Virus record (IMG/VR): IMGVR_UViG_3300014205_000021
Coordinates: 3,207 to 67,206 of that record
Length of the DNA: 64,000 nt
Reading direction: 5' to 3' (one strand)
From: a virus
Lineage: Duplodnaviria; Caudoviricetes
Each line of letters opens with the position of its first letter. The stretch's first letter is position 1. This document shows positions 1,138 to 27,201 of the stretch, piece after piece. The translations under genes were made by a program, and so were the position numbers. The notes beneath the pieces are model-generated. The model had not been told where the DNA came from. It saw only the letters and a program-made list of their open reading frames with translations, and did no database searches.

Positions 1138-1631
1138 CAGACAATCCCTCGCCCGGGCACCGCACCGCCACCACCCGGGTTAGGCCCTCGGGCATTACCG
1201 GCTTTCAATCGCGCGATGGCGGCTTTCGTATAGGCGGACGCCTGGCCGACAACCGTCGTGACGATGTAGCGCCCCCGCTGGTTATATTCGCGGCCGAGCG
1301 AATCCTGCCCCACAAAGCCAAGCTCGAGCCGCAGCGCATACTCGGCCGTGTTCCCCATATAATAGACCTGCCCCATTTGCATCGTCGCGGCGACGAAATT
1401 GCAGCGCGCAAGCGAGTCCTGCCCGACACCGCCTTGACCGCCCGGGCGCTCGCCGATCTGCGCGAACCATGATCCACGGGAAAAGCCCGTCAGCACGGGC
1501 CAGCGGGTGACGATTTCCTCGTTCATCGTCTGGATCGTATCGACGATCACGATCGCCGGCGCGAGCTTTGCTTTCGCGCACCAGCGTTCGACGTCGACGA
1601 TGAATTCTTTCGGTGTTCCCCGGCTCGCCAC
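1137..1631 (-). CDS. HK97 gp10-like neck / tail-completion protein
   Basis: PVLTGFSRGSW and YMGNTAEYALRLELG motifs; synteny. Confidence 0.7.
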   Translation of the reverse strand: MASRGTPKEFIVDVERWCAKAKLAPAIVIVDTIQTMNEEIVTRWPVLTGFSRGSWFAQIGERPGGQGGVGQDSLARCNFVAATMQMGQVYYMGNTAEYALRLELGFVGQDSLGREYNQRGRYIVTTVVGQASAYTKAAIARLKAGNARGPNPGGGGAVPGRGIV

Positions 1632-1993
1632 TATGGCCGCCCCTGAATGATGAATGCGAACGGCTTGTCGTCGACGTCGAGCATTTCGACGTCCATCACG
1701 GAAAACTTATATCGCCCAAATTCGATCCGGTCACCGTTCTGCGGCGTGCACTGAAGCCCGAGCCCTTGCAGGATCAGTTTTTTATCCTGCCGCTGCACCC
1801 GTGTGCCGTCGATTTCTCGGAAGGTGTATGCGGTCACAATCCCGAAGGCGTCGAACTCTTCCTCGGTCACTTCCGCGCTGCCGGTCGCGTTGTCATACGC
1901 TCCGGTGCGGCGCCGAAAGATCAGCATATCGCGGCCGTCCTCCTCGAGCGCAGCCGCGACGGATTCCCGATAGTCGTCGCCCGCGTCGCTCAT
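1631..1993 (-). CDS. Head closure (stopper) protein
   Basis: GAYDNATG...IDGTRVQRQDKKLIL...GDRIEFG pattern; synteny. Confidence 0.65.
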   Translation of the reverse strand: MSDAGDDYRESVAAALEEDGRDMLIFRRRTGAYDNATGSAEVTEEEFDAFGIVTAYTFREIDGTRVQRQDKKLILQGLGLQCTPQNGDRIEFGRYKFSVMDVEMLDVDDKPFAFIIQGRP

Positions 1994-2439
1994 TGGTCGC
2001 GCCGGTTCGGGTCGGGCTGCGGGCCGAGCGCCGACGGGTTGTCGTCCATCCCGATATCGAACTGTGATCGAGGCCGATCCGTGTTTGCCTCGACGCGGTT
2101 CATCTCTCCGATGCTCACGCCGCCGACATACGGCATTCCGAGTCCGCCGGGCCGTTCGGTTTTCTGCGCCCGCAAACGAGTGGCGAGGTCGGCATAAAGC
2201 TGTGCCTGCTCGCCGCCGCTCTTCGAGAAGCTGCCGATCTGCACGCTCGAAACCCGCGAATATTTTGCCGAGAGGCGGTCGGCGCAGACCGCCGCCGCCT
2301 CGAGCGGGTCGCTATAGATACCGAGGATCGCGTTGATCTCCTCGTCGCTCAGCCGCGGCGCGGTGTCGACCGTGTCGCTCAGGTAGAAGCGCACGAGATC
2401 CTGCTTGCGCGAAAGGTCTTCCTTGTAGGTGAAGCTCAC
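1990..2439 (-). CDS. Head-tail adaptor / connector protein
   Basis: VRFYLSDT...LSDEEINAIL...AAAVCAD pattern; synteny. Confidence 0.65.
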   Translation of the reverse strand: MSFTYKEDLSRKQDLVRFYLSDTVDTAPRLSDEEINAILGIYSDPLEAAAVCADRLSAKYSRVSSVQIGSFSKSGGEQAQLYADLATRLRAQKTERPGGLGMPYVGGVSIGEMNRVEANTDRPRSQFDIGMDDNPSALGPQPDPNRRDQ

Positions 2440-2765
2440 GGGATCACGCCTCCCTGCGGGTTCGCGTCATTCGCGCGCAGCACGAGTGTGCCGTCGATGG
2501 CCGCGCGGGTAACGCCGGTCTTTCCCTCGATGTGATAATAGGCCGTCCCGGGATCCGCGACCTTCGAGTCCCACCGCGCGACGTACCCGCACGTGTCGGT
2601 TTCCATCGCAATATCCGCATTCGTTTTCACGCCGTTTACGAGATAGGAAACTCGCACGGTCGCGCTCTCGACCGTCGTCGGGTTGCCGTCCTCATCCTCG
2701 AAGGCTGCGTGAAACGCGACGACGTTATTCCGGGTGATGACGTCCGCGATTGCCTGAGCCTTCAT
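2436..2765 (-). CDS. Small Ig-like virion protein (BppU N-terminal-like), putative fibre adaptor
   Basis: ATG at 2765: MKAQAIADVITRNNVVAFHAAFEDEDGNP...; beta-strand periodicity; lies in the neck module. Confidence 0.45.
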   Translation of the reverse strand: MKAQAIADVITRNNVVAFHAAFEDEDGNPTTVESATVRVSYLVNGVKTNADIAMETDTCGYVARWDSKVADPGTAYYHIEGKTGVTRAAIDGTLVLRANDANPQGGVIP

Positions 2766-3543
2766 CGAGGAGCCCCCAGATATTGCCGCTGAACATTTCT
2801 TCTTCGGTGAACTGGCAATACGCGAGCGAGCGAAGCCAGCGGGTGCGGTCTGGATAGCGCGGGCGCTCAATCTCCACAAGCTCCGTGCGGCCGACGGCAG
2901 CGGCCGCGCAGCTCGGATCAACAAAAACCGGGCAACCAAGCATCACGGCTTCGACCGCGGCGACGCTCCCGTGGGTCACCAGCGCGTGTGCGCCTCGCAG
3001 ATCATCGCCTAGCGGCGTCTGGCTGTTCTTCTCGCGGATGCGAACCGGTCGCCGGGTGAGCTCACGCAAGCGGGCGACCGTGACGGCCGTCCAGTCCGGG
3101 ATCCCGTGGAAAGCCGCATAGGTCTCGCTCGGAGCCGCGACCACGATATGCTCGCCCTCCCGCCGCCAAGGCCCCGGAGGGGCCCGGAGAAGCGATAAAC
3201 GGTCATCCGGGCGGTCAACTACCCTCCGCATCTGAAAATCGTTCAGGTGCCAGCGGTAATAGCCGCCATTCGTGCCCCGGGGGAGCCAGGTCGTGTGGCT
3301 TCGGCGCAAATACCCCCGATCCCAATACAGCCACGGGCGCCCGGAGGCCTGCCAGCGGTCGAGCAAAGGCCTGAGCGGCGGCCAGCCGCCCACGGCCGGT
3401 ATCTGATCCGCCGGCAGGCGCTCCAAGTCCTCGAGAGTTTTCACCGGGCCGCCTGTCGCGCGCGCGAGCCGCTCGAAGAGCTGCATCTTGAAAGGCTTGA
3501 GACCGGGCGTGAAGAAAATCCGAACTTTCCGTGCGGTGATCAT
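2725..3543 (-). CDS. Glycosyltransferase-like protein (capsule-synthesis KpsS/KpsC-like GT-B C-terminus)
   Basis: ATG at 3543; YWDRGY and HALVTHGSVAAVEAVMLGCPVF...WLRSLAYCQFTEEEM motifs. Confidence 0.55.
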   Translation of the reverse strand: MITARKVRIFFTPGLKPFKMQLFERLARATGGPVKTLEDLERLPADQIPAVGGWPPLRPLLDRWQASGRPWLYWDRGYLRRSHTTWLPRGTNGGYYRWHLNDFQMRRVVDRPDDRLSLLRAPPGPWRREGEHIVVAAPSETYAAFHGIPDWTAVTVARLRELTRRPVRIREKNSQTPLGDDLRGAHALVTHGSVAAVEAVMLGCPVFVDPSCAAAAVGRTELVEIERPRYPDRTRWLRSLAYCQFTEEEMFSGNIWGLLDEGSGNRGRHHPE

Positions 3544-4247
3544 GGTCGCCAGTGTTTTTCTACCCACGGGAGCTGCGCGAACCCCGCCGGCTGCCGTCGG
3601 CCATTGAACGTCACGAGACGCGCGCCAGCCGGCAACTCGTTCGTGCTCTCTGGCCACCCGGGCTTTCGGAAAACATAGACACCGGACTCGGAGCCACATT
3701 TCCACCCGGCGGCTCCCGGCAGCTTTGCGGCGAGCCAGCCTTGATCGTCTGGAAACTCGAAAAACGGTGTCTTGGCCACCGCGTCGATCGAGAACTCGCG
3801 CCAGACATGCGGATTGCACCCTCGGCGCAGCATCATGAGCGCGCCGTTATACGGGCATGGGTTTGCCGCATTTCCGCCCTGCATGATCACGAAAGGCTCG
3901 ACGCGCGCGAAAAGTGGATCAAGCTCGCCCGTGATCACGGTGTCGAGATCAACACACACCAGCCGATCGTCGATCTGCACGGCCTGCTGCCAGACAGGAT
4001 CAAACATACGGAGTCGGGCGAGACACCCCGGGCGCTCAAGCAGATATCGATCCTCTGGCGGAATCTCCGCCACGCTGAAAATCATCGAGTCGACATAGCG
4101 ATAGTCCCGCGCGTGCGAGAACGGTCGATCCGCTATCAGCAGAAAGCGAAAAGGCCGGCGGAGGTTTCGCCGCAAGCCGCCGACGAGCTTCGCGACGTCG
4201 TCGGCGCTAAATTTCGTCCCCCATAGCCATGTGGCAATCGTCAGCAT
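3540..4247 (-). CDS. GT-A (GT8-like) glycosyltransferase
   Basis: ATG at 4247; WGTKFSADDV, DxD motif VDLDTVITG, NGALM, DDQGW, LVTFNG. Confidence 0.7.
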   Translation of the reverse strand: MLTIATWLWGTKFSADDVAKLVGGLRRNLRRPFRFLLIADRPFSHARDYRYVDSMIFSVAEIPPEDRYLLERPGCLARLRMFDPVWQQAVQIDDRLVCVDLDTVITGELDPLFARVEPFVIMQGGNAANPCPYNGALMMLRRGCNPHVWREFSIDAVAKTPFFEFPDDQGWLAAKLPGAAGWKCGSESGVYVFRKPGWPESTNELPAGARLVTFNGRRQPAGFAQLPWVEKHWRP

Positions 4248-5047
4248 CGGTTTGCTCCTTTGCGCATCGTCGTGGCGCGCTCCGCCGCCTCGATCACATC
4301 CTCGACGGTAATTTTCGACATAGCCTCGCGGCAATGCGCGCACGGCTTGAGCGCGCCGCACGGTTTTTCGTCGCCGACATAGATATTCTCGTGCAGCGGG
4401 TAGCCGGTCGTCCGGGGATGAATCCACGCGCCAAAAAGAACGACCGCCGGAATACCGAGCGCCGCCGCGGTGTGGTGCATCCCGCCCTCGGGCCCGATCC
4501 ATAACTTGGCGGCGCGAAGAAGCGACGCGGCCGCGCGCCAGTTCACCGTCAGTATCGCGTCCGTGCGGTTCTCGAGATGGTACGGCGCATCCGGTGAAAC
4601 GAACTGAACGACCCGGTGCCCTGCCGCGATGATCATTGCGGCTATCGCCTCGTAACGTTCCCGCGGCCACTGCTTGTTGATCGCCGAATCCTTTTTCGCG
4701 ACATTCGGGTCGATCACGACGAAGCCATGCCGTATATGGTCGAGCATCGCGTCTTCCGTCGCGGAGAAAAACAGCTCGCCGGGCGTTGCGCGGAAGCTAT
4801 CGTTGAATTCCCAATTCTTGCCCCGGATCGGACGGACATAAGTCCGATGCCCTTGATAGAAATGGTTCCACTCGATGTCTGGCGCGCCCTCGTCGCCTGG
4901 CCGCGCGACGTTCGGGTTTCCGCGAAACACCATATCGCCGTAGAGCCCCCAGATGATCCGCGTGCCATCACCGAACGCGATGCGCTTACCCCGGGCAAGC
5001 GCGCCCCGCGCCATGCCGCTCGCCATAACCTCATCGCCAATTCCCAT
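4241..5047 (-). CDS. GT9 (heptosyltransferase-like) glycosyltransferase
   Basis: GAGGAG RBS; MGIGDEVM; GPEGGMHHTAAALGIPAVVLFG; C-terminal CxxC cluster. Confidence 0.8.
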   Translation of the reverse strand: MGIGDEVMASGMARGALARGKRIAFGDGTRIIWGLYGDMVFRGNPNVARPGDEGAPDIEWNHFYQGHRTYVRPIRGKNWEFNDSFRATPGELFFSATEDAMLDHIRHGFVVIDPNVAKKDSAINKQWPRERYEAIAAMIIAAGHRVVQFVSPDAPYHLENRTDAILTVNWRAAASLLRAAKLWIGPEGGMHHTAAALGIPAVVLFGAWIHPRTTGYPLHENIYVGDEKPCGALKPCAHCREAMSKITVEDVIEAAERATTMRKGANRC

Positions 5048-5177
5048 CTTGCGTCTCCTCGGCCGTGACTCGCCAGCCGGGGAAGAACCGGTGGGAGTAT
5101 TCCTGCCACTGATAGTCGAAAGCGAAATGCGTGCAGCTCGGCACCGCGAGCGCGACCCGACGACGAAGCCAGATCAA
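5031..5177 (-). CDS. Small hypothetical protein (48 aa)
   Basis: TTG start overlapping the upstream stop; fills the gap in the operon. Confidence 0.35.
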   Translation of the reverse strand: MIWLRRRVALAVPSCTHFAFDYQWQEYSHRFFPGWRVTAEETQDGNWR

Positions 5178-5866
5178 AACCGGCAAATCGACTCGAGGGC
5201 TTCCTCGCTCGTGACCTTTGGAAAGCATGTGATCGCACTCCCGGGGTTCGCATTCACGACCCGGATGCCGGCGGCTTCTAGCTGAGGCACCGCGGTCGCG
5301 AAATGATTTGCCCAATCGCCCCACCCGGCAGCCTGCCCACGGGAGAACCACGGGTTCAAGCTGCCCGCGTGATGTTTTCCCCCGGGTTTTAAATCGGTCG
5401 TGTAATCGTAGCCGAATAGGAAGATCACCCGAGGGCGCCGATGGTACGCAAAGCCGAGCCCGCTATAACCGGAGCAGAATCCCGAATGGATCACGCACGG
5501 GTCTTCCGAAAGGCCGCCACGCTCGTGTGAGCGCCGAAGATAAAACGCCCCCGGGCAAACGCGCCCCACCCGGTTTGGCCGATCCGGCGGGACGACGAGC
5601 CAGAGCTTTTTTGCCGAGGCCTCGCGGCACATCAAATCCCATGCATGCGGCCGCTGCGGCCAGTTCAAATCCATGCTCACCGTAGCCTCGTGAAAGTCGA
5701 CTAGGCGGCACGCTTCCTTGATCGCCACGACGTGCGCGCGCCCGCGAAGCCGCTCGAGCGCAACCCCGTCGACACTCGGGCCGCTCCCGAGCAGCACGAC
5801 CGGAAGGTCGTCCCACGAGGGTTCGTTCGCCGGCGTGCAAAAAGGCTGATTCACGAGCTGCATCAC
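5174..5866 (-). CDS. Maf/DUF115-like (GT29/GT42-fold) putative nonulosonate or Kdo transferase
   Basis: LLGSGPSVD, VVAIKEA and SGYSGLGFAYHRRPRVIFLFGYDY match the GxGPS ... S-x2-A-x3-A...I-x-L-x-G-x-D signature. Confidence 0.6.
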   Translation of the reverse strand: MMQLVNQPFCTPANEPSWDDLPVVLLGSGPSVDGVALERLRGRAHVVAIKEACRLVDFHEATVSMDLNWPQRPHAWDLMCREASAKKLWLVVPPDRPNRVGRVCPGAFYLRRSHERGGLSEDPCVIHSGFCSGYSGLGFAYHRRPRVIFLFGYDYTTDLKPGGKHHAGSLNPWFSRGQAAGWGDWANHFATAVPQLEAAGIRVVNANPGSAITCFPKVTSEEALESICRF

Positions 5867-6237
5867 GCGGCTGCCGGGGCTTCCCGCTCGGACTTCACTT
5901 TCGCGGCGGCTTTGCGCTTTTTCTTCTTCGGTTTCTTTTTCGCCGGCGTGTTAATTTTTTCGGGAGCCGCCACCGCGGCGGGCGCTGCCTTTGCAGATCC
6001 CGCGAAAGTCCCCGCCGGCACGACCCGCTTGAGAGAGGCCCACCCGCGAATGACCGGCGGCGCGACCTTGTAGTCTATTCTGCGCTGCTCATAGAGCTGG
6101 CGCATTAGCCGCGTGGTCGCTTCGCCTCGAGGAAAATCCTGCCCTGCCTCAAGCGTGAGGTCGGCCCTTAGGCGGACTTGTCGCGTAACGACGTAATCCG
6201 CTGCCGGGTCGAAGGGCGGAAGCCATATTCTTGCCAT
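5863..6237 (-). CDS. Small head-associated protein with a Lys/Ala-rich basic tail
   Basis: ATG at 6237 (MARIWLPPFDP...); C-terminal AKKKPKKKKRKAAAK; directly after the capsid gene. Confidence 0.6.
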   Translation of the reverse strand: MARIWLPPFDPAADYVVTRQVRLRADLTLEAGQDFPRGEATTRLMRQLYEQRRIDYKVAPPVIRGWASLKRVVPAGTFAGSAKAAPAAVAAPEKINTPAKKKPKKKKRKAAAKVKSEREAPAAA

Positions 6238-6314
6238 TGCTTCGCTCCGTCCTGATGTGAAAAGGGCGGCGGTTTTTACCCGCCGCCCCTTTGATTGTAA
6301 TCGCGCGACTGCGC

Positions 6315-7292
6315 TTAGTCGACGATGTTTTCCCAGAACGTGCCCATGTCGGCCGCGACGACCTTCTGATCGAGCGCCATCTGGATTTCGACGCGATCCG
6401 AGTCCTCGCGGTCGAGGCGGATCGTCTTGATCCGCGTGCCGCTCTGCGAGGCTCCGAACCACCCCGCCCAGCTGAACGTGTAGCCGGCCGACGGCGTCAT
6501 GATGCCGGGGTTCGGCGCGACGTAGCAAAGGAGCGCATGCTTGCCGCCGATGAAGGAATGCGAATTCGCAAGCCCCTTCTTCGCGGTGTTGCGGATCGAG
6601 TCCATCACCAGCACGCGCTCGACCTCGAAGAGCTGCGCGAGCGTGTTCTTGTTCACGATCGCGGGCGACCCGGGGCTCGACGAATACTTGATGCGGTCGA
6701 TGATTTCCGGATGGTCGACGAGAGAGTCGAACACGCGGCGCCCCATCACGAGAGTGTTCGGCCGGAAGCCGGTCGATTCCGCCTGCGTGGTTGCGGCCGC
6801 ACGCACGTTCTCGACGGGCGTCGACGACGAGATATTCCAGTGCGGCACCTGGCCGGTGGCTCCGCCGCCGTCGTAGTCGTTCGTCCACACGCCGCCCTGG
6901 AAATACTTGGTCGCCCACAGCACTTCGCGTTTGATCAGCGCCTTCAGCGTAACGATGTAGGTCGTCTCACGGTCGAGGTCGAGCGGCGCATCAGCGTTCG
7001 CACGGATCTCGTCCGGGATATCGTGGTGATAGGCGTAGACCGGCGCGTAATAGGTCGGCGTAGAGTCGACCGTATAGCCACGGCCGGCGCTCTCGGTGCC
7101 GGGCGCACGCAGCTCCATCTCATCGCGGTTCATTTCGCCGCGATCGTAGGTGAAATAACGATCCGACTGCTTCTGCACCGGAACGTTCGGGAAGACCTGA
7201 TCGGCAACGAAGTTTGCGGCGTCCTGCATGAACGCCACGCTGATATTGGTCAGCGGGCGATTAACGTGGACGTCGCCACGGGTGGGTTGCAT
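6315..7292 (-). CDS. Major capsid protein (lambda gpE-like, HK97 fold)
   Basis: 325 aa; PLTNISVAF...FVADQVFPNVPV; AAGGA RBS; synteny. Confidence 0.9.
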   Translation of the reverse strand: MQPTRGDVHVNRPLTNISVAFMQDAANFVADQVFPNVPVQKQSDRYFTYDRGEMNRDEMELRAPGTESAGRGYTVDSTPTYYAPVYAYHHDIPDEIRANADAPLDLDRETTYIVTLKALIKREVLWATKYFQGGVWTNDYDGGGATGQVPHWNISSSTPVENVRAAATTQAESTGFRPNTLVMGRRVFDSLVDHPEIIDRIKYSSSPGSPAIVNKNTLAQLFEVERVLVMDSIRNTAKKGLANSHSFIGGKHALLCYVAPNPGIMTPSAGYTFSWAGWFGASQSGTRIKTIRLDREDSDRVEIQMALDQKVVAADMGTFWENIVD

Positions 7293-7360: not shown

Positions 7361-7729
7361 TTACGCGGTGCCGAGCGGCTGCCAGAGAATTCCGATGATC
7401 GCACCCGCGCCACCGGCGTTACCCTCGACCGCAACGCCGAGCGAATTATCGTCGCTGCTGCCGACCGGGACGGCCCGGCCCTGACTATCGGTGGAGACAC
7501 GCGCACCAGCCGTGATGTTCGTGCCGCATTCGACGTCCATGATACCGCCGATCCCGACCGCAACCTCGCGGTTGGAATCCGCCGCCTTTTCCTGAATGAC
7601 GCCCACGGCCTTCTCGCCGTCGACGCTGCAAGGAACGATTTTGCCTTCGGAGTCGAGCTTGCCGAACCGATACTGAGCGGTGATCGCGCTGCCCGACGGG
7701 AAGGTAACTCGCTGGATCTTATTTTCCAC
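7361..7729 (-). CDS. Capsid decoration / cement protein (DUF2190-like)
   Basis: AVGVIQEKA...VECGTNITAGARVSTDSQGRAV; immediately upstream of the capsid gene. Confidence 0.75.
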   Translation of the reverse strand: MENKIQRVTFPSGSAITAQYRFGKLDSEGKIVPCSVDGEKAVGVIQEKAADSNREVAVGIGGIMDVECGTNITAGARVSTDSQGRAVPVGSSDDNSLGVAVEGNAGGAGAIIGILWQPLGTA

Positions 7730-13641: not shown

Positions 13642-15051
13642 TTAATCGCGGACTTGGATTGGCATCCCTATCCCGGACTCGGCCAGAACGTCCACCATCA
13701 GATCGGTGAATCCCCAAACGAGGGCGTCCGCCCGGTCGGGCGAGCCTTCGCCCTGATAACCCAGCGTGGAGAAATTGACTAGCTGCTCCTCGAGCGCATC
13801 GAACCTGCCCGCGTGAACGACGAGGCCTTTCTCGTAAAGCGCGCTGATCGGCTCCGCGCGAACTTCCTTGCCGCGGCTCGCCGTCACTTCGCGGAACGCC
13901 ACCGTGGGATCGACCGCCTCGACGACGCCGCGCACCATCCCGCCGCCATAGTTCGTTTCCGCGATGATCCGGTCTGCTTTGTAATCCTGATAGGCCTTCA
14001 CCGCGATAGCGCCCCAGCCGGGCTGCAGCTCGGGCGGCAGCGTCGGGTCGAGCTTCCCGCCCGGGCCCTTGTCGGTCGTAAGATCCCGCAGCAAATACCC
14101 GACGCCCTTTTTGTCGAGGGCCTGCACGGTGATGCCGACCTGATTGCTGCGCTTGTTCTCGTCCTTTCCTTTCGTGCCGCTCGGGTCGATCGCGACGACG
14201 ACCCGTGCGAGATCGGCCGGCACGTCGGCCGGCTCGATCCGGCTCTGCTCGAGCCGCTCGATCGTCCAGAGCGCGTTGTCGATTTCGTTAACGTATAGGC
14301 CCTCGTAAAATCGCTTGCGGTAGCGGCCCGGCAAGTTCTCGTACATGCGCAGCGTCTCGGGCGGGAGCCACGGGTTGTCGACCGGGTTCATAAACATGCG
14401 CTTGTAGTTTTCCGGGTCTTTCAAAAGCGTGCGGCTGAGCGGGTCGCGCAGCTCGCCGAACTCCCGGTTCGTCCAGTGCATCGTGCCGACCGGGTTCAAG
14501 TCGTAGAACGCGCGGAGCTTCAGCCCCGGGACATTCTGCGCAAGACGGGTGCGCAGGATCAGGATCGACGTATAGGGAATCTGCGAGCACTCGTTAGCGA
14601 AGATCGTCGCGTACTCCTGGCCGAGAATTTTGTCCGCGCGCTCTTTGTCATCTAGGCCGCCGAACCATATCTCGGAGCCGTTCGGCAGCACGGCCAAGCC
14701 ATCGGTTTTGTTGAGCGAATAGCCGACGCGCGGAAAACAGAGCTTCATCACCTTCGGGAAGGTGTCGAGCATGATCGACGACTTCACGTGGTTGAAGCGG
14801 AAGCGGACGATCAGATGCCGGCTGCCCGGATGGCGGATCGCGCGGCCGACAAGCATCCGGATGATAAAAAACGTTTTCGTCGACCGGCCACCGCCCACGA
14901 AGAGCGTGTGCATTTGGCCGCCGCCGCAAAGGTCGAGCGCCTCCTCCTGTTTCGGGGAGTAAGCCCCGAGCGGCGGGACGCCCTTAAACTTTGGCTTCGC
15001 GGTCGCTGAACTTGACGATGATCGGGCCACCGCCCGGGCCGCCGATTTCAT
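13642..15051 (-). CDS. terL: Terminase large subunit
   Basis: SPKQ adenine motif, Walker A variant GGGRSTKT, IFANE, DLNP, VVVAIDPS, AETNYGG, PDRADA; GGAAGGA RBS before ATG 15051. Confidence 0.92.
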   Translation of the reverse strand: MKSAARAVARSSSSSATAKPKFKGVPPLGAYSPKQEEALDLCGGGQMHTLFVGGGRSTKTFFIIRMLVGRAIRHPGSRHLIVRFRFNHVKSSIMLDTFPKVMKLCFPRVGYSLNKTDGLAVLPNGSEIWFGGLDDKERADKILGQEYATIFANECSQIPYTSILILRTRLAQNVPGLKLRAFYDLNPVGTMHWTNREFGELRDPLSRTLLKDPENYKRMFMNPVDNPWLPPETLRMYENLPGRYRKRFYEGLYVNEIDNALWTIERLEQSRIEPADVPADLARVVVAIDPSGTKGKDENKRSNQVGITVQALDKKGVGYLLRDLTTDKGPGGKLDPTLPPELQPGWGAIAVKAYQDYKADRIIAETNYGGGMVRGVVEAVDPTVAFREVTASRGKEVRAEPISALYEKGLVVHAGRFDALEEQLVNFSTLGYQGEGSPDRADALVWGFTDLMVDVLAESGIGMPIQVRD

Positions 15052-18235: not shown

Positions 18236-18718
18236 TCAGCCGACGTCGACAACCCGAATGCCGAGGAACTGCGCGAAGGCCTGCTCGCGCGAAATCACCG
18301 TCGCGGTCGTGCCTTGTCGCTCTTGCTGCGAACCGAAGGGCCGGAAGGTTCGGAATTCAATCGGTAGACCGGCGACGTCCGCGCGCTCAATCCCGAGGCA
18401 CATGCCGTCCGAGATGCCCGAGTCGACATAGCAGGCCATCAGCTCCGCGCAGCCGAGCCACGCATGCCCCGCGTTGATGCCGAGCCGTCGTTCGAGCGGC
18501 ACTTCATCGCGTAGAACCCCGTCCTGCGTGAAGAGCAGATGCGAGGCAATCGGCGCCTCGCCGCGTAAGACAGAATCGCGCACGGCCTTGCGCGCGTAGT
18601 TGATGTTTGAGCGTTGCTCCGCCGGCACTTGGCCGGCAAAACGGCTTTCGAGAATGACGCGGCGAGGCCTGATTTCTCTAACCGCGTTCGCTAGCGATTT
18701 TGGCGTAGTCTGATCCAC
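18236..18718 (-). CDS. Nucleoside deoxyribosyltransferase-like fold protein (DUF4406/DUF7768-like)
   Basis: VILESRFAG...NINYAR...RGEAPIASHLLF...GISDGM..GIERA. Confidence 0.6.
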   Translation of the reverse strand: MDQTTPKSLANAVREIRPRRVILESRFAGQVPAEQRSNINYARKAVRDSVLRGEAPIASHLLFTQDGVLRDEVPLERRLGINAGHAWLGCAELMACYVDSGISDGMCLGIERADVAGLPIEFRTFRPFGSQQERQGTTATVISREQAFAQFLGIRVVDVG

Positions 18719-19973
18719 CTTTGGCTCCCTCGAGCTTTGCTTTCCGGCCTGTAAATTTCTGCCAACGCAGAACTGCGACGTCGACATAGGCTGGATCAAG
18801 CTCGATGGCCAAGACCGATCGGTTCAGTTGTTCACCGGCAATGATCGTCGTGCCGGAGCCGCTGAACGGCTCATAGATGAAATCGCCTGGCTGCGAGTTG
18901 TTTTCAATCGGGCGCTTCATGCACTCGATCGGCTTCTGCGTCCCGTGCCCCTGCCCGTCGTCCTCGCGAGCCGGGATCGTCCAGAGCGTCGACTGCGAGC
19001 GCCCGCCGGCCCAGCGGCCGCGCGCGCCCTTACGCACCGCGTACCAGCAAGGCTCGTGCTGCCAGTGATAATCGCCGCGCGAAAGCGCGAACCGATCTTT
19101 CGCCCACATGATTTGAGATCGAACCGCGAAGTCACACGCTTCGAGCGATTGCTGTACCGTCGCGGCGAACAACCCCGCGTGCCACACATACGCGATATCG
19201 CCCGGGAAGAGCGCCCACGCTTCGCGCCAGTCCGCGCGATCGTCGTTCTGCACCTTCCCCATTTTCTTTTTGTTTTGGTTCACGCCGACAGTTGCTCGCC
19301 ACTCGGGATCGTAGTTCACGCCGTAAGGCGGATCGGTCACCATGAGCGTCGGTTTCTTTCCGGCCAGGAGCCGCGCGACTTCCTCGGCATTCGTCGCGTC
19401 CGCGCACATCAGGCGGTGGTTTCCCAGAATCCAGATATCGCCCCGGCGCGTCACCGGCTTTGCCGGCAGGGCCGGCGTCGCCTCGCCGTCGGTCTTTCCT
19501 TTCGTGCCGCCGAAGCCGAGCCCGATCAGCTCGCCGGTACTGAAACCCGTCAGCTTCAAATCGACGCCGCCCAGCTCGAGGATTCCTTTCATCTCGAGCT
19601 TGAGCATATTCCGATCCCACACGCCGAGGAGCCCGAGCTTATTATCGGCGATGCGATACGCGCGCTTTTGCGCCTCGGTGAGCCCGCGAAGAACGATGCA
19701 CGGGACGTCGAGCATGCCGTTCAGATCGGCCGCTTCGAGGCGGCCGTGGCCGGCAATGATTTCATCCTTTTCGTCGATCAGGATCGGGTTCGTGAAGCCG
19801 ACCTCCCGCATGAGCGCGGCCAGCTCCTTCACTTGAGCGGGCGGGTGCTTCTTCGCGTTCTGCTCGTATTTTTTTAAGTCGGCGACCCGGCGCCGTTCGA
19901 TCTTCTCGTGCAGCGTGACGTTAATTTTTTCCGTGATTCCTGACGCTGCTTTTTGCTTTGGGCTTTTTGCCAC
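18678..19973 (-). CDS. ParB-domain plus N6A/N4C DNA methyltransferase
   Basis: N-terminal IIAGHGRLEAA...AYRIADN; VTDPPY; HGTQKP; EPFSGSGTT; GTG 19973 with GGGAG RBS. Confidence 0.9.
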   Translation of the reverse strand: MAKSPKQKAASGITEKINVTLHEKIERRRVADLKKYEQNAKKHPPAQVKELAALMREVGFTNPILIDEKDEIIAGHGRLEAADLNGMLDVPCIVLRGLTEAQKRAYRIADNKLGLLGVWDRNMLKLEMKGILELGGVDLKLTGFSTGELIGLGFGGTKGKTDGEATPALPAKPVTRRGDIWILGNHRLMCADATNAEEVARLLAGKKPTLMVTDPPYGVNYDPEWRATVGVNQNKKKMGKVQNDDRADWREAWALFPGDIAYVWHAGLFAATVQQSLEACDFAVRSQIMWAKDRFALSRGDYHWQHEPCWYAVRKGARGRWAGGRSQSTLWTIPAREDDGQGHGTQKPIECMKRPIENNSQPGDFIYEPFSGSGTTIIAGEQLNRSVLAIELDPAYVDVAVLRWQKFTGRKAKLEGAKGGSDYAKIASERG

Positions 19974-21268
19974 GGCGCTCTCCCTCGAGTTCGGTGATGA
20001 CCGATTGCACGAGTTCAATACGCACGCCGAGCCAGCGGATGCAATTCGCCGCCATCGTATTCCCCAGCACGTTGTAACGCGGGCGCGTCCGCCGCGTGGT
20101 TCTTGTTCCGGTAAGGGACGTCCGTATAGCCGTCGGGCAAGCCCTGCAGGCGCTCGCACTCGACTGGCATGAGACGGCGCACGCCCCACGCGGCTGCGAC
20201 GCATTGCGCGGAATCGCCTTTGCCGCTCGTCCCGGCTTCGCTCGTGAGCGCGGAAGCCACACTGTCTGGCGCACCGCGGTCGTTGCGGGCAAACCGCGGC
20301 TGGAAGATCACGGGATCCTGATCGCCTTTATCGCCATCCGTTCCTAGCCGACGGCCGCCGCTGCGGCCGCCCTTGCTACCACTCGAGAGCGAAGCCGAAA
20401 CGGTCGGGATCAGATGGCCGTCTTTTGTGTTCGAGTCCGCGCCTTTCGCATCGCGCTCTTGCAGCGCCCATGCGACTCCGGGGATGAGATGGGAGTGCTG
20501 ACCGTCGCCTCCGTCCGGTTGGCCGCCGCCGCCAGCGCGCGCTGCAAGTGCATTGGCAATTCCCGTCCCCGCTTCTCGGCGCGGCGGAGAATCCCCGCGC
20601 AGGCTTTCGGGGTCAAAAAGAACCGCTGCGGCACGTCGCCAGTCTCGAGAATTTGCGACAACGAACACACGCCTTCGTCTTTGAGGAACAGCCCTTCCAA
20701 ACCCGTCCACTCGCACGAATTGAGCGTCAAGCACCCGGTAGCATCCGTGATACCCGAGTTCGGCCAGGCCCCCGAGGAACGCCGAAAAGTCTCGCCCTTC
20801 GCTCGAGGACAAAACCCCGGGGACATTTTCCCAGACCACCCACTCGGGCCGATATCGCTCAGCAATTGCAAGATAGACAAGCGCGAGGTTACCCCGTGGG
20901 TCAGCCAATCCTTTACGAAGTCCCGCGAGCGAGAATGACTGACACGGGGTTCCTCCGATGAGAACATCGAGAGCTGGGACATCAGGCCACTCCTTGAAGC
21001 GTTCGAGATCACCGAAATTCCGAAGCCCGGTTTTTTTCTCGGGCAAATACTGAACCGCCTTTATCGCGGCCGCGCGTTCGCAGCGAACCCGTGGGTCTTT
21101 TGTCCGCGCTGGGTTCGGCATGAAAAGCGGACGGCCGCAGCCGTAATGATGGTGAAGCACCGCCGAGGCGAAAGGCGCAACCTCCGCGTAGCCGGCAGCT
21201 TCCCAGCCGAGCGGCCGCCACGCGACCGTCGGCGACGAGATGCCCGAGCAGACGTCCAGATACCTCAT
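19921..21268 (-). pseudogene. C5-cytosine DNA methyltransferase with a +1 frameshift before motif X (real lesion or assembly error)
   Basis: CSGIS, GGTPCQSFS, ENVPG, PQRRRR and RRLMPVECERLQG in one frame; motif X (PRYNVLGNTMAANCIRWLG) in another frame; extra base at about 20081-20083. Confidence 0.8.
20410..20982 (-). CDS. Nested alternative-frame gene inside the C5 methyltransferase (M.EcoHK31I beta-polypeptide-like)
   Basis: Internal AAGGAG RBS 7 nt before ATG 20982; CSLSQILETGDVPQRFFLTPKACAGILRRAEKRGRELP. Confidence 0.7.
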   Translation of the reverse strand: MSQLSMFSSEEPRVSHSRSRDFVKDWLTHGVTSRLSILQLLSDIGPSGWSGKMSPGFCPRAKGETFRRSSGAWPNSGITDATGCLTLNSCEWTGLEGLFLKDEGVCSLSQILETGDVPQRFFLTPKACAGILRRAEKRGRELPMHLQRALAAAANRTEATVSTPISSPESHGRCKSAMRKARTRTQKTAI

Positions 21269-22728
21269 TCGATTTCACGAACCTCGACCCGGCGGAACAT
21301 ATCGACGATGCGCTTGTACGCAATCTCGACGTAAGCCGGCGAGAGTTCGATCAGCATCGCACGCATACCCAGCCCGTCCGCAACCATCGCGGTCGTGCCA
21401 CTCCCGCCGAACGGATCAAGCACCAGCCCGCCCGGCGGGCAACCGGCCTGCAGGCAACGTTCCACAAGTTCAGGCGGAAAGGTCGCGAAGTGCGCGTCCT
21501 TGAACGCTTCGGTCGCCATCGCCCAGACACCGAGCGGCGCTTCCTCGTAATTCCGCAAATATCGGCGGAGCGGCGTTACCGCGAGCGCGGCATTCATGCT
21601 CGAGTTGTTCTTCACCCGGCGGCCCTGCTCGTCCGCCGCCGCGGCCTTCGGCTGCGCGCGACGCACGACGGCCTTCATGTTGCCGTTCGTTTTCGCGCCC
21701 GCGTTCGCGCGCGCGCTTCCGATTTGCGCCGCGACATTCTGCGAGACCCGCGCGTGTGTGCTGTCACTAACCTCGAGCGAGACCGCCTGCGCGTCGTAAT
21801 AGTATGGCATCCGGATCCAGCGTGGGCCTTCCTTGTCCGGGCGGGTGAGGAACGGAACGCGCTCCTCGAGGTTCGGCCGCGTCGACACTTCGCCGGTATC
21901 CCGCGCGCGCCAGAGTTCGACCGAGTCGCTCTTCGCGAGCAGAAAGATTTTTTCGTGCGCGCTCGACGGCCGCGTGCTGCCGTTCGAGTCCGGCATCGGG
22001 TTTTTCTTCCCCCAGATGATCTCGCTCTTGATCCACCACCCCCACTCCTGAAGCGCAATCGCGAGCCGGTTCGCGACCATGCAGAGATCGCCTGGCTTCA
22101 GCACCCCACCCTTCTGCGCGCGGGCGCGCGTGCGATCGTGCGTATCGCGGCTCGTGCCGAAGTTCACGCCGTGCGAGGCCTTGAGCCGATCCGGGTAAAT
22201 CTCGCCGCTTGTCGCAAACGGCTTGTCGCGGAAAGTGCGGTCATCCTTGCCGCCGCGCTGCTTCGCATCCTTCACGCTCGTGCCGTTCGGCGCGGTCGCG
22301 TAGCAATCGCCATAGTTCAGCCAGACGGTGCCGCTCGGCTTCAACACGCGGTGGATTTCAGCAAAGACCGCGACCATCGCGTCTAGGTGCTCGCCGAGCG
22401 AAGGCTCAAGCCCGAGCTGCTTATCGACCCGAACGGCGCCGCACCGCGGGCACTTGGTTTTATGCGGGCGCTCGCCCGTAAACGTGCGGCTGGCTCGCGC
22501 GCCACCCTTACCTTGCCGGCCGTTGGTCGGTTTGTGCTTGCACTTCGGATCGCCGCCGATCCACTGGCCGGTGTTGTAATCCCGTAATCCCCAATACGGC
22601 GGCGAGGTCACGACGCAATCGACGCTATTCGGTTTCAGGGTGCGCAGCGCGTCGATCACGTCGCCTTGCAGGATTTCGACCACGCGGGGCTGCGAGAGAG
22701 CAGACCGTTTCTTGCCACCGCTTTTCAT
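21265..22728 (-). CDS. N4C/N6A DNA methyltransferase (beta class) with long insertions
   Basis: GDVIDAL, VVTSPPY, HEKIFLL, HFATFPPELV, DPFGGSGTT. Confidence 0.9.
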   Translation of the reverse strand: MKSGGKKRSALSQPRVVEILQGDVIDALRTLKPNSVDCVVTSPPYWGLRDYNTGQWIGGDPKCKHKPTNGRQGKGGARASRTFTGERPHKTKCPRCGAVRVDKQLGLEPSLGEHLDAMVAVFAEIHRVLKPSGTVWLNYGDCYATAPNGTSVKDAKQRGGKDDRTFRDKPFATSGEIYPDRLKASHGVNFGTSRDTHDRTRARAQKGGVLKPGDLCMVANRLAIALQEWGWWIKSEIIWGKKNPMPDSNGSTRPSSAHEKIFLLAKSDSVELWRARDTGEVSTRPNLEERVPFLTRPDKEGPRWIRMPYYYDAQAVSLEVSDSTHARVSQNVAAQIGSARANAGAKTNGNMKAVVRRAQPKAAAADEQGRRVKNNSSMNAALAVTPLRRYLRNYEEAPLGVWAMATEAFKDAHFATFPPELVERCLQAGCPPGGLVLDPFGGSGTTAMVADGLGMRAMLIELSPAYVEIAYKRIVDMFRRVEVREIE

Positions 22729-22898
22729 AGCGGGCGTCTCCATCGGTTCGGGGAGGAATGGCGGGCGGCGGACTGAGTCCCTACGGTCGTGCCGTTCCTA
22801 AAAGGTGCAGGGGGCCTCGCGAGCCGTACCTGACCGCCCTCTGGGTATTCGGTGACGCGGCAATCGGGAGCTATCCCAACCACCAATTGCCGCGCCGA

Positions 22899-23418: not shown

Positions 23419-26400
23419 TCAATCGTCCGGGTCGCCGGGTGATCGCACTTCCGTGACGACCCTCGCGCGCTTGATCGAAACGCTCGGCGCTTCCTCGCGA
23501 ATGACCACCCGACCGCGTAGCGCGCGCCGAACCCGCGCAGTCGCGCGGGCAATCGGGCGCTTCACGAAGATGACGAACGTCGCGGTAAAGCTGAGCGCGT
23601 AACCGCTCGAGATCACGACCACGACGGCAGAGAACGCCTTCATGGCTTTCACCGCCTGGCCGCTCTGTACGCGGATCAGCCGACTCACCGCTCGATAGAG
23701 CCGGAAAGCCGAACCGCTCGTGATCCGGATCGGCTTCGCGGCCGCGCGCAATACCCTGATGCTGCCGGGCGAAACCGTGCTGATCAGTAGCCCGAGCTTC
23801 CGCGAGTGGCCGACCACCAGCGCGTACCCGCTGCCGGCGCGCAGGAGCTTCGCGATCGCGCGGGCCACGCGAATACCGGTTCCACTCGATACCGCGAGCA
23901 GCCGCGCGCTCGAGCGGCGCAAGACCACCGAACTGGGCGTAAAAATCGACATAGGCTTCGCGAGGGCTCGACGGAGCTGCACCGCGTAAGCGGTCTGGAA
24001 AAGCACCCGAATTGCCAAATTGCGCAAAAGCGCAATCTGGCCCCCGGTTTGTGGCGAAAGCGGCTTCGCGATCGCGCGGCGGAGCCGCACAGAGGCCGGG
24101 AGGAGGACGCTGAGGGGCTTAGCGGCAGCCCGGGCTAGCGAAACTGCCCCGGGGGTCTGCAATCTCAACAGGCGTCCCCCTCCGCGAAGAAGGCGCACGC
24201 TCTGCGCGCCGACGACCCCCAGCATTTTACCCGCGCCGCGGTACGGCCGAACAGCCGAGCCGCTCGCCAACAGCAGAATCAGCGCGTCGGCCTTACGCAA
24301 TCGAATAACGGCCGGGGAGGCGACCCGCAGGATGCGTTCGCTCGACCGCGTAAGCGCGAGCGAATAGCCGGTTTGCACCGCAATGCGTACCCGGCGGGCA
24401 AACGTGAAGCTGACCGAAATCGCCGAGCCGAGCCCGAGGGTGAACGTCCGCGCGAAGCTCCGCGTGAGCGATACCGCGGCGCCGGTCACGAGCTGCAGCC
24501 CACGGGTGAGGTTCCGCCGTAGCCGGAGCTCGCTGCTGGTGCCGTAAGCAATCACGCGACCGCGCATGATCGGCAGCTTGATCAGCATCAAGGTCGTGAT
24601 GCGCAATCGTTTCTGCACCGCCCAGAAGGACGCGATCAGATGCCCACTCGCCACCCGGAGGATCGGGCCGGCGGATCGGAACATCGTCACGACGCCACCC
24701 GTCGCGAGACCAATCGAAAGCGTGACCGGCCGTGTGACAAAAACCGCGCTGCCGGTTTGCAACCTCAGTATTCGCGCGCTCGCGCGCACGACCCGGATCA
24801 GGCTTCCGGTCGTCCCGCGCAGGATCTTCTCGAGCGAACGCGCCAACACGATGCTGGCACTCGTCTGCACGGCGAAATATTTCCCGAAGCTGAAGCGCGA
24901 GAAGCTGATCGCCTGGCCGGTCGTCACGCGGAGAAACCGAGCGGAAGCCCGCACGAGCGCGAAAGCCGAGCTGCTGGCGACGCGAAGCAGCTTTCCGCTG
25001 GATCTCGTGACCGAGATCGCGGCGTCGGTCACCACGCGGGCATATTTGCCCGAGCTGCGCGTGACCGTAATCGCGCTGTCCGTCACGACCGGATAGATGC
25101 GGTTTGCCGCATGCGAGGCGAAGAAGAAAAACGACGTCCCGGTCTGCACCGGGAATGCCTTTCGCATCGCGCGCACGATCGAGATCGTATAGCCGATCGC
25201 GGGCTTGATGCTCCGCGCGATCGCTCTCACAATCTGGATCGCATTTCCGTTTTGGATCATGATGCGCTTTATCTCGATCGCGCGCCCGAGCACCACCGAG
25301 TAGCCGGTCGCGGCGAGAAAAACTTTCGGCATCGATCGCACGATCGAAATCGCGCTATCGCTCGTGAAGGAGAGCAGCTTTTGCTCCGCGCCCTCGCGCG
25401 TAACGAAAGTCGTGAATGCGATCAGATAGTCGGAGACGACCTGCACGATCTTCGGGCGGGTAAGGTACATCTTCGTCGAGATGTCATTCACAACCGTGAC
25501 GGCCTTTTGCGTCACCGGCGAGTACGTGATGACGATCAGCCCTTGCGCACCGCTGCCAGACGTTGACGCGCCGGTATTCGAACCGCTGCCACCGCCGCCA
25601 CCGCCGTAGAGGCCACCGCTACCCGCTGCGGTGCCGCTATCGAAATTGCCGCCGCCGCCGCCGCCAGCCCCGTGGGTCGCGTCAAACTCGGTGCCCGCTC
25701 CGCCGTTCGCGTTTTGGCCGCCGCCCGCTCCGCCCAGCCCGGCATCCGCGCTGCCGCCGGCAGTAAAACCGTTGTCGCCCCGATCCGTACCCTGATTGCC
25801 ATCGCCGTTCGGGCCGGCGGCACCACCACCGCCCGTGCCGGCGCGGCCCGACGTAGCGGTGTAATTCCCGCCTCGCCCGCCGGTGAATGCAGCAGCGTTC
25901 CCCTTGCCGGTGCCGCCCGCCCCGCCCGATTGTGTGATGTTCTGATAACCGAGTCCACCATTGCCGCCGAGCGCGCCCGTAACAGCTGCCGCGTAGCTGG
26001 CTGCGTTGAACCAAGTGTTGTCGCCGTTGCCGCCGTTCGCATTACCGTTACCGCTCGGCACGTTCGCATTCGCGCCGCCGAACCCGACGTTGTACGAAGC
26101 CGTGCCGCCTGGCGTAAGCACAAGCCCGGTAGATTTGCCGTACCCGCCGCCACCGCCGCCGGTACCGCCGCGATTACCCGTAGAGCGTCCTACGCCACCG
26201 CCACCGCCGCCGCCGATGCACTCGATGCTATTTGTTGCGGTGAAGTTGGCCGGGATATTCCAAGACTGGACGCTGCCAGTCGTCGTGAGGAAAGCCACCG
26301 TCGCGCATTCGATATAGCGGAACGTGCTGGACTTCTGCCCGGTGGCGATCTGCCGAAATTCAATGAATTTCTTGACCGAGACCTCGCCGGCAGTCGGGCC

Positions 26401-26529
26401 CGGGATCGCCAGCCAGACAAACGCAACACCGGCCGCGATGCCAAGACGTCGAACCCGCGTGGGGTTTCGGAGCTTCGCGAGATAGCTGATTTGCCGCGGC
26501 GTGAAGCCGCCGAACTTCTGCCCGTTCAT
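23419..26529 (-). CDS. Giant putative fibre: Gly-rich head domain plus about 35 imperfect 18-aa beta repeats
   Basis: Gly-rich block (IECIGGGGGGG...GSGAQGLIVITY), then repeats such as TDSAITVTRSSGKYARVV / TDAAISVTRSSGKLLRVA. Confidence 0.75.
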   Translation of the reverse strand: MNGQKFGGFTPRQISYLAKLRNPTRVRRLGIAAGVAFVWLAIPGPTAGEVSVKKFIEFRQIATGQKSSTFRYIECATVAFLTTTGSVQSWNIPANFTATNSIECIGGGGGGGVGRSTGNRGGTGGGGGGYGKSTGLVLTPGGTASYNVGFGGANANVPSGNGNANGGNGDNTWFNAASYAAAVTGALGGNGGLGYQNITQSGGAGGTGKGNAAAFTGGRGGNYTATSGRAGTGGGGAAGPNGDGNQGTDRGDNGFTAGGSADAGLGGAGGGQNANGGAGTEFDATHGAGGGGGGNFDSGTAAGSGGLYGGGGGGSGSNTGASTSGSGAQGLIVITYSPVTQKAVTVVNDISTKMYLTRPKIVQVVSDYLIAFTTFVTREGAEQKLLSFTSDSAISIVRSMPKVFLAATGYSVVLGRAIEIKRIMIQNGNAIQIVRAIARSIKPAIGYTISIVRAMRKAFPVQTGTSFFFFASHAANRIYPVVTDSAITVTRSSGKYARVVTDAAISVTRSSGKLLRVASSSAFALVRASARFLRVTTGQAISFSRFSFGKYFAVQTSASIVLARSLEKILRGTTGSLIRVVRASARILRLQTGSAVFVTRPVTLSIGLATGGVVTMFRSAGPILRVASGHLIASFWAVQKRLRITTLMLIKLPIMRGRVIAYGTSSELRLRRNLTRGLQLVTGAAVSLTRSFARTFTLGLGSAISVSFTFARRVRIAVQTGYSLALTRSSERILRVASPAVIRLRKADALILLLASGSAVRPYRGAGKMLGVVGAQSVRLLRGGGRLLRLQTPGAVSLARAAAKPLSVLLPASVRLRRAIAKPLSPQTGGQIALLRNLAIRVLFQTAYAVQLRRALAKPMSIFTPSSVVLRRSSARLLAVSSGTGIRVARAIAKLLRAGSGYALVVGHSRKLGLLISTVSPGSIRVLRAAAKPIRITSGSAFRLYRAVSRLIRVQSGQAVKAMKAFSAVVVVISSGYALSFTATFVIFVKRPIARATARVRRALRGRVVIREEAPSVSIKRARVVTEVRSPGDPDD

Positions 26530-26549
26530 CGCGTCCCCGCGCACGGGCG

Positions 26550-27197
26550 TTAGCGGTAAACGCCCCAGAAGGTCTTCTGCGAAACCTCGACCGTCACGAC
26601 TTCGGCCTCGAGCGCGCCGCCCGCGCGCTTCTCAAATGTCTTATCGAGCATCGCGGCAATATTCAAACCATCGTCAATCCACGGCGCCGCATCGGTCGGC
26701 ACAAAACGCTTTTGCTCGTTTACGCAGAAGAACGCCCCGCCTTCCGCGAGCGACGCGCGGATGCGCCCGATATCTTCCGCCGGCTTCGCGCAATGCTGCA
26801 GCACCCAGACGCTCAGGGCTGCGTCGAAGCGCAGCCCCTGCTCGGCCACAAGATAGTCGAGCATCGGCGGCGCAACCACGGTGAACCTCGGGCTCTCGAC
26901 GTACTCGATCGCGAGCTTCTGCATCCCGAGGCTGATATCGCAGCCGATGACCCGGCAGCCCGTGCGCGTGATCAGCGCCTCGGCCATCCGGCCGATTCCG
27001 CACCCGTAGTCGAGGACGAGGCTTTCGGGTTTGAGGTCGAAGTGCTGGCCGAACAGGTCGACGAGATAGGGCGTCTCGAGCGCCCAGCGAACGTCCGTTC
27101 CTTGTGATCGGTTCGGCGTCAAAATGATGCCGGCCGCTTCCGCTCGGTTTCGAACGTCGAAAACGCGGGGTGAGAAGCGGCCGGCGACTTGCTGCAT
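26550..27197 (-). CDS. Class I SAM-dependent methyltransferase (small-molecule/sugar type, not a DNA MTase)
   Basis: VLDYGCGIGRMA, GCDIS, FDAALSVWVLQHC; ATG 27197. Confidence 0.85.
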   Translation of the reverse strand: MQQVAGRFSPRVFDVRNRAEAAGIILTPNRSQGTDVRWALETPYLVDLFGQHFDLKPESLVLDYGCGIGRMAEALITRTGCRVIGCDISLGMQKLAIEYVESPRFTVVAPPMLDYLVAEQGLRFDAALSVWVLQHCAKPAEDIGRIRASLAEGGAFFCVNEQKRFVPTDAAPWIDDGLNIAAMLDKTFEKRAGGALEAEVVTVEVSQKTFWGVYR

Positions 27198-27201
27198 CGG
27201 A

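Follow-up and report, generated by a model that had tools for sequence, protein, structure and literature searches.

A mobile cassette of four glycosyltransferase genes in the late operon of a tailed phage: a candidate system for glycosylation of virion proteins

Main finding

The DNA analysed here, hereafter the window, is a stretch of 64,000 nucleotides (bases 3207-67206) of the IMG/VR virus record IMGVR_UViG_3300014205_000021, which originates from a landfill metagenome. Its late operon contains a cassette of four genes, named here GTa, GTb, GTc and GTd, which encode soluble cytoplasmic glycosyltransferases (GTs) of four different folds or families and lie between the gene for the major capsid protein (MCP) and that for a head-tail adaptor-like protein. 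We propose, with a probability of about 0.5, that the cassette glycosylates proteins of the virion, which is the best reading of the evidence gathered below. This evidence comes from the organisation of the operon, from the folds and motifs of the four enzymes and from the conservation of the cassette in the virion modules of otherwise unrelated phages.

Gene organisation of the cassette

The complete source record has 67,206 bp, carries direct terminal repeats and is rated 100% complete; the GC content of the window is 62%. The late operon is encoded on the minus strand and begins with the genes for terminase, portal, MuF, protease, scaffold and cement protein, which are followed by MCP, g124, GTa to GTd, g109, the adaptor-like protein, the head closure protein Hc1, two further neck genes and the major tail protein. 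The presence of four co-oriented GT genes between the MCP and the head-tail adaptor, as described in a first-pass annotation made from the sequence alone, was confirmed at the coordinates listed here. Gene calling by codon usage, with the window itself as the training set, recovered the open reading frames (ORFs) of that annotation exactly; a cruder ORF calling was dropped because shadow ORFs in DNA of such GC content merged families.

13642-15051, minus strand: terminase
7361-7729, minus strand: cement protein (PF09956)
6315-7292, minus strand: MCP (phrog_1005, 5e-87; PF03864)
6264-6288, minus strand: GC-rich hairpin with a 9-bp stem, then TTTT on the transcribed strand, just 3' of the MCP stop
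5863-6237, minus strand: g124, small protein with a Lys/Ala/Pro-rich tail
5174-5866, minus strand: GTa, 230 aa, start codon GTG
4241-5047, minus strand: GTb, 268 aa
3540-4247, minus strand: GTc, 235 aa
2725-3543, minus strand: GTd, 272 aa
2436-2765, minus strand: g109, small protein between GTd and the adaptor
1990-2439, minus strand: head-tail adaptor-like protein (phrog_1732, 5e-17)
1631-1993, minus strand: head closure protein Hc1 (phrog_161, 7.5e-17)

The genes had been described as coupled by overlapping start and stop codons, which holds for most of the junctions. The stop of g124 overlaps the start of GTa (-4), and overlaps recur between GTb and GTc (-7), GTc and GTd (-4), GTd and g109 (-41) and g109 and the adaptor (-4). 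GTa and GTb, on the other hand, are separated by a gap of 126 nt, so that translational coupling of the cassette is mostly, not wholly, present. GTa may start at the GTG at 5866 or, equally well, at the ATG at 5863. A sequence scan found no sigma-70-like promoter within the cassette. The hairpin at 6264-6288, whose function we infer, is probably an attenuating terminator; attenuation at this place would lower the expression of the cassette and the neck genes relative to that of the capsid protein.

The two small proteins that flank the cassette, g124 and g109, have no family match in Pfam, PHROG or NCBIfam. Variants in g124 at 6164-6205 are without third-codon-position bias and paired 1-nt indels occur at 6123/6125 in other samples; the true start of this gene may be at 6105 (80 aa), which would lengthen the untranslated leader after the terminator. 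The gene was considered as the counterpart of a small protein (f38) that precedes GTa in other phages, and this was rejected as the two are not homologous.

Identity of the four enzymes

The family guesses of the first-pass annotation hold for all four proteins at the level of the fold, since profile and structure searches place every ORF in a GT fold. GTa to GTd contain no hydrophobic or transmembrane-like segments and are thus expected to be cytoplasmic. The cassette gave no match by blastn against 50,697 phage records, and single-sequence searches of the PDB with GTa, GTc and GTd returned nothing useful.

GTb is the member with a direct Pfam assignment. Over residues 108-224 it scores 46 bits for PF01075 (GT9), where the Pfam gathering cut-off is 22 (E = 5e-12), and its top PDB sequence match is the lipopolysaccharide (LPS) enzyme WaaF (1psw). 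Its sequence points to a heptosyltransferase-like GT-B enzyme of family 9. The NCBIfam models for heptosyltransferases I, II and III give about 28 bits, under their cut-offs of 135-467; GTb does not belong to the LPS heptosyltransferase equivalogs (WaaC/WaaF/WaaQ), hence an ADP-heptose (adenosine diphosphate heptose) donor is not implied.

GTa matches phrog_4603 at 2e-17 and no Pfam family at E <= 1; one of its homologues (P0128) does carry PF01973. The ESM-Atlas model aligns, with template modelling (TM) scores of 0.75-0.82, to clusters annotated with PF01973 (MptE-like), WaaZ_KDO_III and Maf_flag10_N; matches to Cst-II profiles are weak. The GSGPS and GxD motifs and His166 are conserved in 21 homologues. 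We assign GTa to the MptE-like GTs, of the CstII GT42, WaaZ or Maf catalytic-core type. A full Maf flagellin GT was considered and rejected, since GTa consists of a 230-aa core only, against the 450-750 aa of these multi-domain enzymes.

For GTc, which matches phrog_1962 at 3e-12 and neither PF01501 nor any other Pfam family, the AlphaFold2 model (predicted local distance difference test, pLDDT, of 93.1) was compared using Foldseek and gave glycogenin, LARGE1, LgtC and GT6 at about 1e-8, with TM scores of 0.55-0.67. A weak PDB profile match to the Skp1 alpha-galactosyltransferase (0.003) was also obtained. The DxD motif (D100-L-D102) is invariant or nearly so in 32 sequences. GTc is accordingly described as a GT8-like GT of the GT-A fold and retaining type.

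GTd belongs to no Pfam, NCBIfam or PHROG family and its profile found no match in the PDB. Its AlphaFold2 model (pLDDT 90.7) matched KpsC and WbbB at 5e-6 in Foldseek, and VIA Z scores were 11.9 for KpsC, 11.0 for WbbB and 8.6 for KrkA, with about 200-230 of the 272 residues aligned at 10-13% identity. These three enzymes (GT107, GT99 and GT140, respectively) are its best full-length structural matches and have in common with it a modified GT-B architecture. The first-pass annotation had taken GTd for a KpsS/C-type transferase of Kdo (3-deoxy-D-manno-octulosonate), and this assignment fell on the motifs. Retaining beta-Kdo transferases are defined by QXXXD, which holds the Asp nucleophile, and by (K/R)XHP, which binds cytidine monophosphate (PMC12887879). 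QXXXD is not conserved in 41 family members and does not occur in the query, as judged from sequence. (K/R)XHP is missing from the conserved columns of the 41 homologues, and the sole HP of the query, at residue 270, belongs to a disordered C-terminal tail. Without these motifs in the family, Kdo transfer is not supported even though the fold was guessed correctly, and GTd should not be classed as a Kdo transferase. What the family conserves instead is an HGS...E segment, which we take to resemble the site where ordinary GT-B enzymes bind the nucleotide sugar. We describe GTd as a reduced GT-B enzyme, similar to KpsC and WbbB in architecture and devoid of their catalytic motifs. Its close relatives number more than 546, none of them named, and the wider superfamily comprises 3,713 clusters at 50% identity.

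Within this superfamily (P0159-P0234) many proteins are 550-880 aa long and carry the GTd-like domain at their C-terminus. The N-terminal parts of these long relatives comprise, in some cases, a GT4 or FkbM methyltransferase domain, and most are without a Pfam family.

The cassette in other genomes

A relative of GTd is encoded in 172 IMG/VR contigs, from which 80 loci were fetched for analysis of the gene neighbourhood. The order GTa-GTb-GTc-GTd is kept in these approximately 80 loci. Most of them are longer than the window's cassette and read GTa, f4 (phrog_28018, of unknown function), GTb, a class I methyltransferase, a CmcI/rhamnosyl-O-methyltransferase-like protein, GTc and GTd, with, in some cases, a hexapeptide acyltransferase or a TylF-type O-methyltransferase inserted between GTc and GTd. 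The usual accessory load is two or three sugar methyltransferases together with one further conserved gene, and only 4 of the 51 cassettes bounded on both sides are without a methyltransferase. With its four GTs and no methyltransferase, the window presents a rare minimal form; no copies of the methyltransferase, f4 and acyltransferase families, or of related families, were found elsewhere in the window.

The survey of synteny among relatives found the cassette embedded in virion modules in essentially all of them, with an annotated virion gene (PHROG or Pfam) at most three genes away in 65 of the 80 loci. On the basis of the same neighbour annotation, at least five insertion points can be distinguished, beside unrelated MCP and portal families.

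Insertion point 1: HK97-type MCP, f38, cassette, portal
Insertion point 2: portal, collagen-like protein, gp6-like connector, cassette, Hc1, tail terminator
Insertion point 3: a different portal, cassette, scaffold, MCP
Insertion point 4: portal, collagen-like protein, cassette, adaptor
Insertion point 5 (the window): E-type MCP, cassette, adaptor

The window's MCP is 55% identical to that of Roseobacter phage RDJL Phi1, where a single hypothetical gene (gp75) stands between the MCP and the neck genes and no GT gene intervenes. This cassette-free arrangement indicates that the cassette of the window is an insertion.

In bacteria, matches were restricted to six contigs among the genomes of 185,579 species, namely from Mesorhizobium, Bradyrhizobium, Pseudorhodoplanes, Phenylobacterium, a metagenome-assembled genome (MAG) of Hyphomonadaceae and a MAG of an unclassified member of the Pseudomonadota. 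Phage virion genes adjoin the cassette in the four longer loci (L082, L083, L084 and L087), the other two contigs being short, and several carriers of the cassette are proviruses. The cassette is a phage-restricted, horizontally mobile unit of glycan assembly.

The only cultured carriers found are the Caulobacter jumbo phages. CcrColossus, as well as CcrPW, CcrBL9, CcrSC and Bertelyvirus, encodes proteins that are true homologues (29-36% identity) of GTd and GTb, in a cassette which, in CcrColossus, spans gp126-gp131 (L088, NC_019406.1, 98832-103385) and is located between tail and lysis genes. Its gene order differs from that of the window: a 'sialyltransferase' (annotated as alpha-2,3-sialyltransferase), a hypothetical protein, the GTd homologue, a transferase of nucleoside diphosphate (NDP) sugars, a methyltransferase and a GT9 enzyme. 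These genes have been annotated piecemeal, with no function reported in the literature searched, where we found no description of the cassette in Caulobacter or other alphaproteobacterial phages either.

The first-pass annotation spoke of a rhizobial phage, which the data do not bear out. The DNA comes from landfill, near-identical DNA is found in freshwater, and the closest MCPs of isolates are those of Roseobacter phage RDJL and Pseudomonas phage KPP23 (55%), with the Rhizobium phages at 45%; Alphaproteobacteria are indicated only by the prophage copies of the cassette. As regards lifestyle, neither a tyrosine integrase nor a serine recombinase (resolvase) was found in the genome of the window which, together with the completeness of the record and its terminal repeats, makes it a probably virulent phage. 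No DNA polymerase family was seen among the Pfam matches of the 46 ORFs of at least 110 aa that lie outside the late operon (15.5-58.3 kb).

Several of the loci also encode, after the portal and one to three genes from the cassette, a protein of about 300-360 aa with several collagen-like G-X-Y runs (family f11), which was seen in three of the five cassette contexts (L006, L023, L027, L046 at 3133-4092, L059 and others). This protein may be a candidate acceptor of the glycan in the phages that possess it; there is no collagen-like protein beside the cassette of the window.

Natural occurrence and selection

The cassette genes are real and under purifying selection. The frames of GTa to GTd are conserved at 25-60% identity in the approximately 80 other loci. 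Near-identical DNA (at least 99%) was also seen in freshwater metagenomes of another study, unconnected with the landfill source, where contigs span the gene junctions. In a diverged freshwater strain, 15 of the 20 variants listed for one stretch of GTd fall at third codon positions (P = 1.7e-4), as do all the variants listed for MCP, GTa and g109.

Proposed function

The first-pass annotation had proposed glycosylation of the virion. Virion proteins do represent the most plausible target and the synteny described above strengthens this view; attachment of the sugars to them is the part that we infer, as we do which protein accepts them, which sugars are donated, in what order the enzymes act and what biological role results. 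That annotation went further and described a priming transferase plus three extenders, which was conjecture: the enzymes are without a substrate-recognition domain and GTa is a catalytic core only. The LPS-core-like nature of the oligosaccharide was likewise conjectural and unproven. Its suggestion that nucleotide sugars of the host serve as donors fares better, since no genes for sugar-nucleotide synthesis were found in the genome of the window and donors must be supplied by the host.

In the scheme that we favour, the cassette would share the late transcription of the head and neck genes, downstream of the hairpin terminator that follows the capsid gene, and its enzymes would be made at a lower level than the capsid protein. 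Fed by nucleotide sugars of the host, the GTs would build a short hetero-oligosaccharide on at least one virion protein before or during assembly, each enzyme adding a different sugar or linkage, and most relatives would afterwards O-methylate or acetylate this glycan. The accessory enzymes of these relatives belong to types that tailor sugars (CmcI/rhamnosyl O-methyltransferase-like, TylF-like and hexapeptide acyltransferase). A glycan shield, stability of the particle and altered adsorption are candidate roles.

Several observations weigh against this proposal. The C-termini of the MCP and of the 306-aa major tail protein have no Ser/Thr/Gly-rich tails, and none of GTa to GTd has a protein-recognition domain. 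The cassette moves among phages with unrelated capsids, for which a common acceptor in the host is the simpler explanation; GT9, GT8-like and WaaZ-like proteins are classic types of LPS-core enzymes; and the cassette of CcrColossus adjoins lysis genes, a typical site for morons.

Part of these observations fit another scheme, in which the enzymes would act on the inner membrane, at its cytoplasmic face, on a glycoconjugate of the host envelope (lipid A-core, or an O-antigen or capsule intermediate linked to undecaprenyl diphosphate). The surface of infected cells or of lysogens would thereby be remodelled or capped, for instance against superinfection or against loss of progeny on debris. An acceptor shared by the hosts would account for the portability of the cassette across unrelated virion proteins, and proviruses occur among several carriers. 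The families of GTa, GTb and GTc (MptE-like/WaaZ-like, GT9 and GT8-like) build LPS cores, and the top fold matches of GTd are enzymes of O-antigen and capsule. O-methylation and terminal ulosonic acids are, besides, known chemistries for the capping of chains. One of the GTd fold matches, WbbB, adds a terminal Kdo (PMC9587256).

The organisation of the genes nevertheless argues against an envelope target. Translation of the cassette is coupled to that of late head and neck genes and no promoter-like site was found inside it, unlike in an autonomous moron; LPS made late would hardly reach the surface ahead of lysis. None of the cassettes encodes a flippase, a ligase or an initiating phosphoglycosyltransferase, and bacterial LPS loci are essentially devoid of the family. 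The window phage is without an integrase and CcrColossus is virulent; in particular, a role of the window's cassette as a lysogenic-conversion gene does not fit the lack of integrase and resolvase. We therefore regard modification of the envelope as unlikely, while keeping it as a serious alternative.

Glycosylation of a protein outside the virion (flagellin, pilin or another phage protein) in the cytoplasm, with an effect on the availability of a receptor or on host physiology, would agree with the known activity of MptE/Maf-type and GT-B enzymes, which O-glycosylate flagellins in this compartment (PMC7591256), and with the fact that the isolates bearing the cassette are Caulobacter phages. 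GTa, however, is without the extra domains of Maf proteins, the cassette encodes no TPR or other recognition domain, and the embedding among head and neck genes is left unexplained. This explanation appears quite improbable.

Hypermodification of the phage DNA, with sugars placed on hydroxymethylated pyrimidines, is the least credible of the explanations and was given hardly any weight. Phage GTs that are relatives of LPS enzymes are able to attach hexose, heptose or Kdo-like sugars to 5-hydroxymethylcytosine, and such clusters can be found near structural genes (bioRxiv 10.1101/2023.12.21.572611). The window also encodes a C5 cytosine methylase (20015-21268), the second of three DNA methyltransferases in a row at 18678-22743 (ParB_N with an N6/N4 methyltransferase, the C5 methyltransferase and an N6/N4 methyltransferase). 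Consequently, the earlier statement that no nucleotide-modifying enzymes are nearby has to be corrected for these methylases at 18.7-22.7 kb, and stands for hydroxymethylase and TET enzymes. Indeed, neither a Tet/JBP protein nor a thymidylate-synthase-like hydroxymethylase occurs among the 46 window ORFs mentioned above, and 15 kb separate the C5 methylase from the cassette. Of 23 records that bear the cassette, 5 of them at least 90% complete, none has a thymidylate-synthase-like gene, in a search whose control worked, and only 2 have a C5 methylase; Tet_JBP was likewise found in none of the 23, in a search whose control was silent and which is uninformative.

Returning to glycosylation of the virion, we extend the proposal, tentatively and at somewhat less than even odds, to the whole group. 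Sets of four to five GTs with sugar methyl- or acyl-transferases, mobile across the virion modules of unrelated alphaproteobacterial tailed phages, may decorate the particles with a (methylated) oligosaccharide made from precursors of the host envelope.

A second glycosylation-related module in the window

Elsewhere in the window, four consecutive features form a module (23419-29300) that constitutes a candidate unit for glycosylation of a fibre.

27936-29300, minus strand: TPR protein with similarity to TPR-GT9 proteins over its C-terminal 325 aa (Atlas score 0.96)
27202-27873, minus strand: 223-aa protein with 26% Ser+Thr and a weak 'tail protein' PHROG match
26550-27197, minus strand: class I S-adenosylmethionine-dependent methyltransferase
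23419-26544, minus strand: Gly-rich fibre of 1,041 aa with a Gly_rich_2 domain

The combination of TPR and GT9-like regions in the first of these proteins is the same domain layout as in the flagellin O-GT FlmG (PMC7591256), and the module suggests that the phage invests in protein glycosylation. The TPR-GT9-like protein was not found in the 23 cassette-bearing records, many of which are incomplete, so that its absence is weak evidence.

Comparison with known systems

The kind of system is known, as GT genes with or without a methyltransferase have been described in structural operons of phages; for the present enzyme set, its mobility and its spread, the literature searched holds no description. 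The closest parallels are mycobacteriophages. Corndog (Cluster O, gp35-38) encodes an O-methyltransferase and GTs between portal and protease (PMC4351075) and, like Che8 (Cluster F), it has several soluble GT genes, often accompanied by an O-methyltransferase gene, in or near the virion operon. Phages of the Che8 type carry glycans on their capsids (Freeman et al. 2023, as cited in PMC11256854), and the products of these genes are not components of the virion and the glycan is attached to capsid proteins (PMC4351075; PMC11256854). Unlike in the mycobacteriophages, the GT families of the window are MptE-like, GT9, GT8-like and KpsC-fold, Gram-negative Alphaproteobacteria are the probable hosts, and the cassette is mobile and common to phages with unrelated capsids.

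The GTs of LPS cores (WaaC, WaaF and WaaQ of GT9; WaaO, WaaR, WaaJ and LgtC of GT8; WaaZ) have families or folds in common with GTb, GTc and GTa. They differ in that the phage proteins score far under the cut-offs of the NCBIfam equivalogs and in that the phage genes are phage-restricted and reside in virion operons, not in LPS loci.

In chloroviruses, virus-encoded cytoplasmic enzymes build the glycan of the capsid protein without host machinery, as exemplified by A064R of PBCV-1, a multi-domain GT and methyltransferase. These are giant viruses of eukaryotes, with enzymes unrelated to those of the window and atypical N-linked glycans.

Significance

To our knowledge, glycosylation of the virion by phage enzymes has been established experimentally only in a few actinobacteriophages, where it changes recognition by antibodies. 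GTd defines an uncharacterised GT family, which clustering at 50% identity divides into more than 3,700 groups, with a KpsC-like shape, different catalytic motifs and neither a Pfam model nor a named function. The minimal four-gene form and the cultured Caulobacter jumbo phages with homologues provide tractable systems for tests. If the proposed function is true, no system for glycosylation of the virion would have been described before this cassette in phages of Gram-negative bacteria, the window phage would carry its minimal four-enzyme core, and glycosylation of the particle would be a general trait of phages. This would bear on adsorption, on the stability of particles, on the immune recognition of therapeutic phages and on the reading of cryo-electron microscopy maps.

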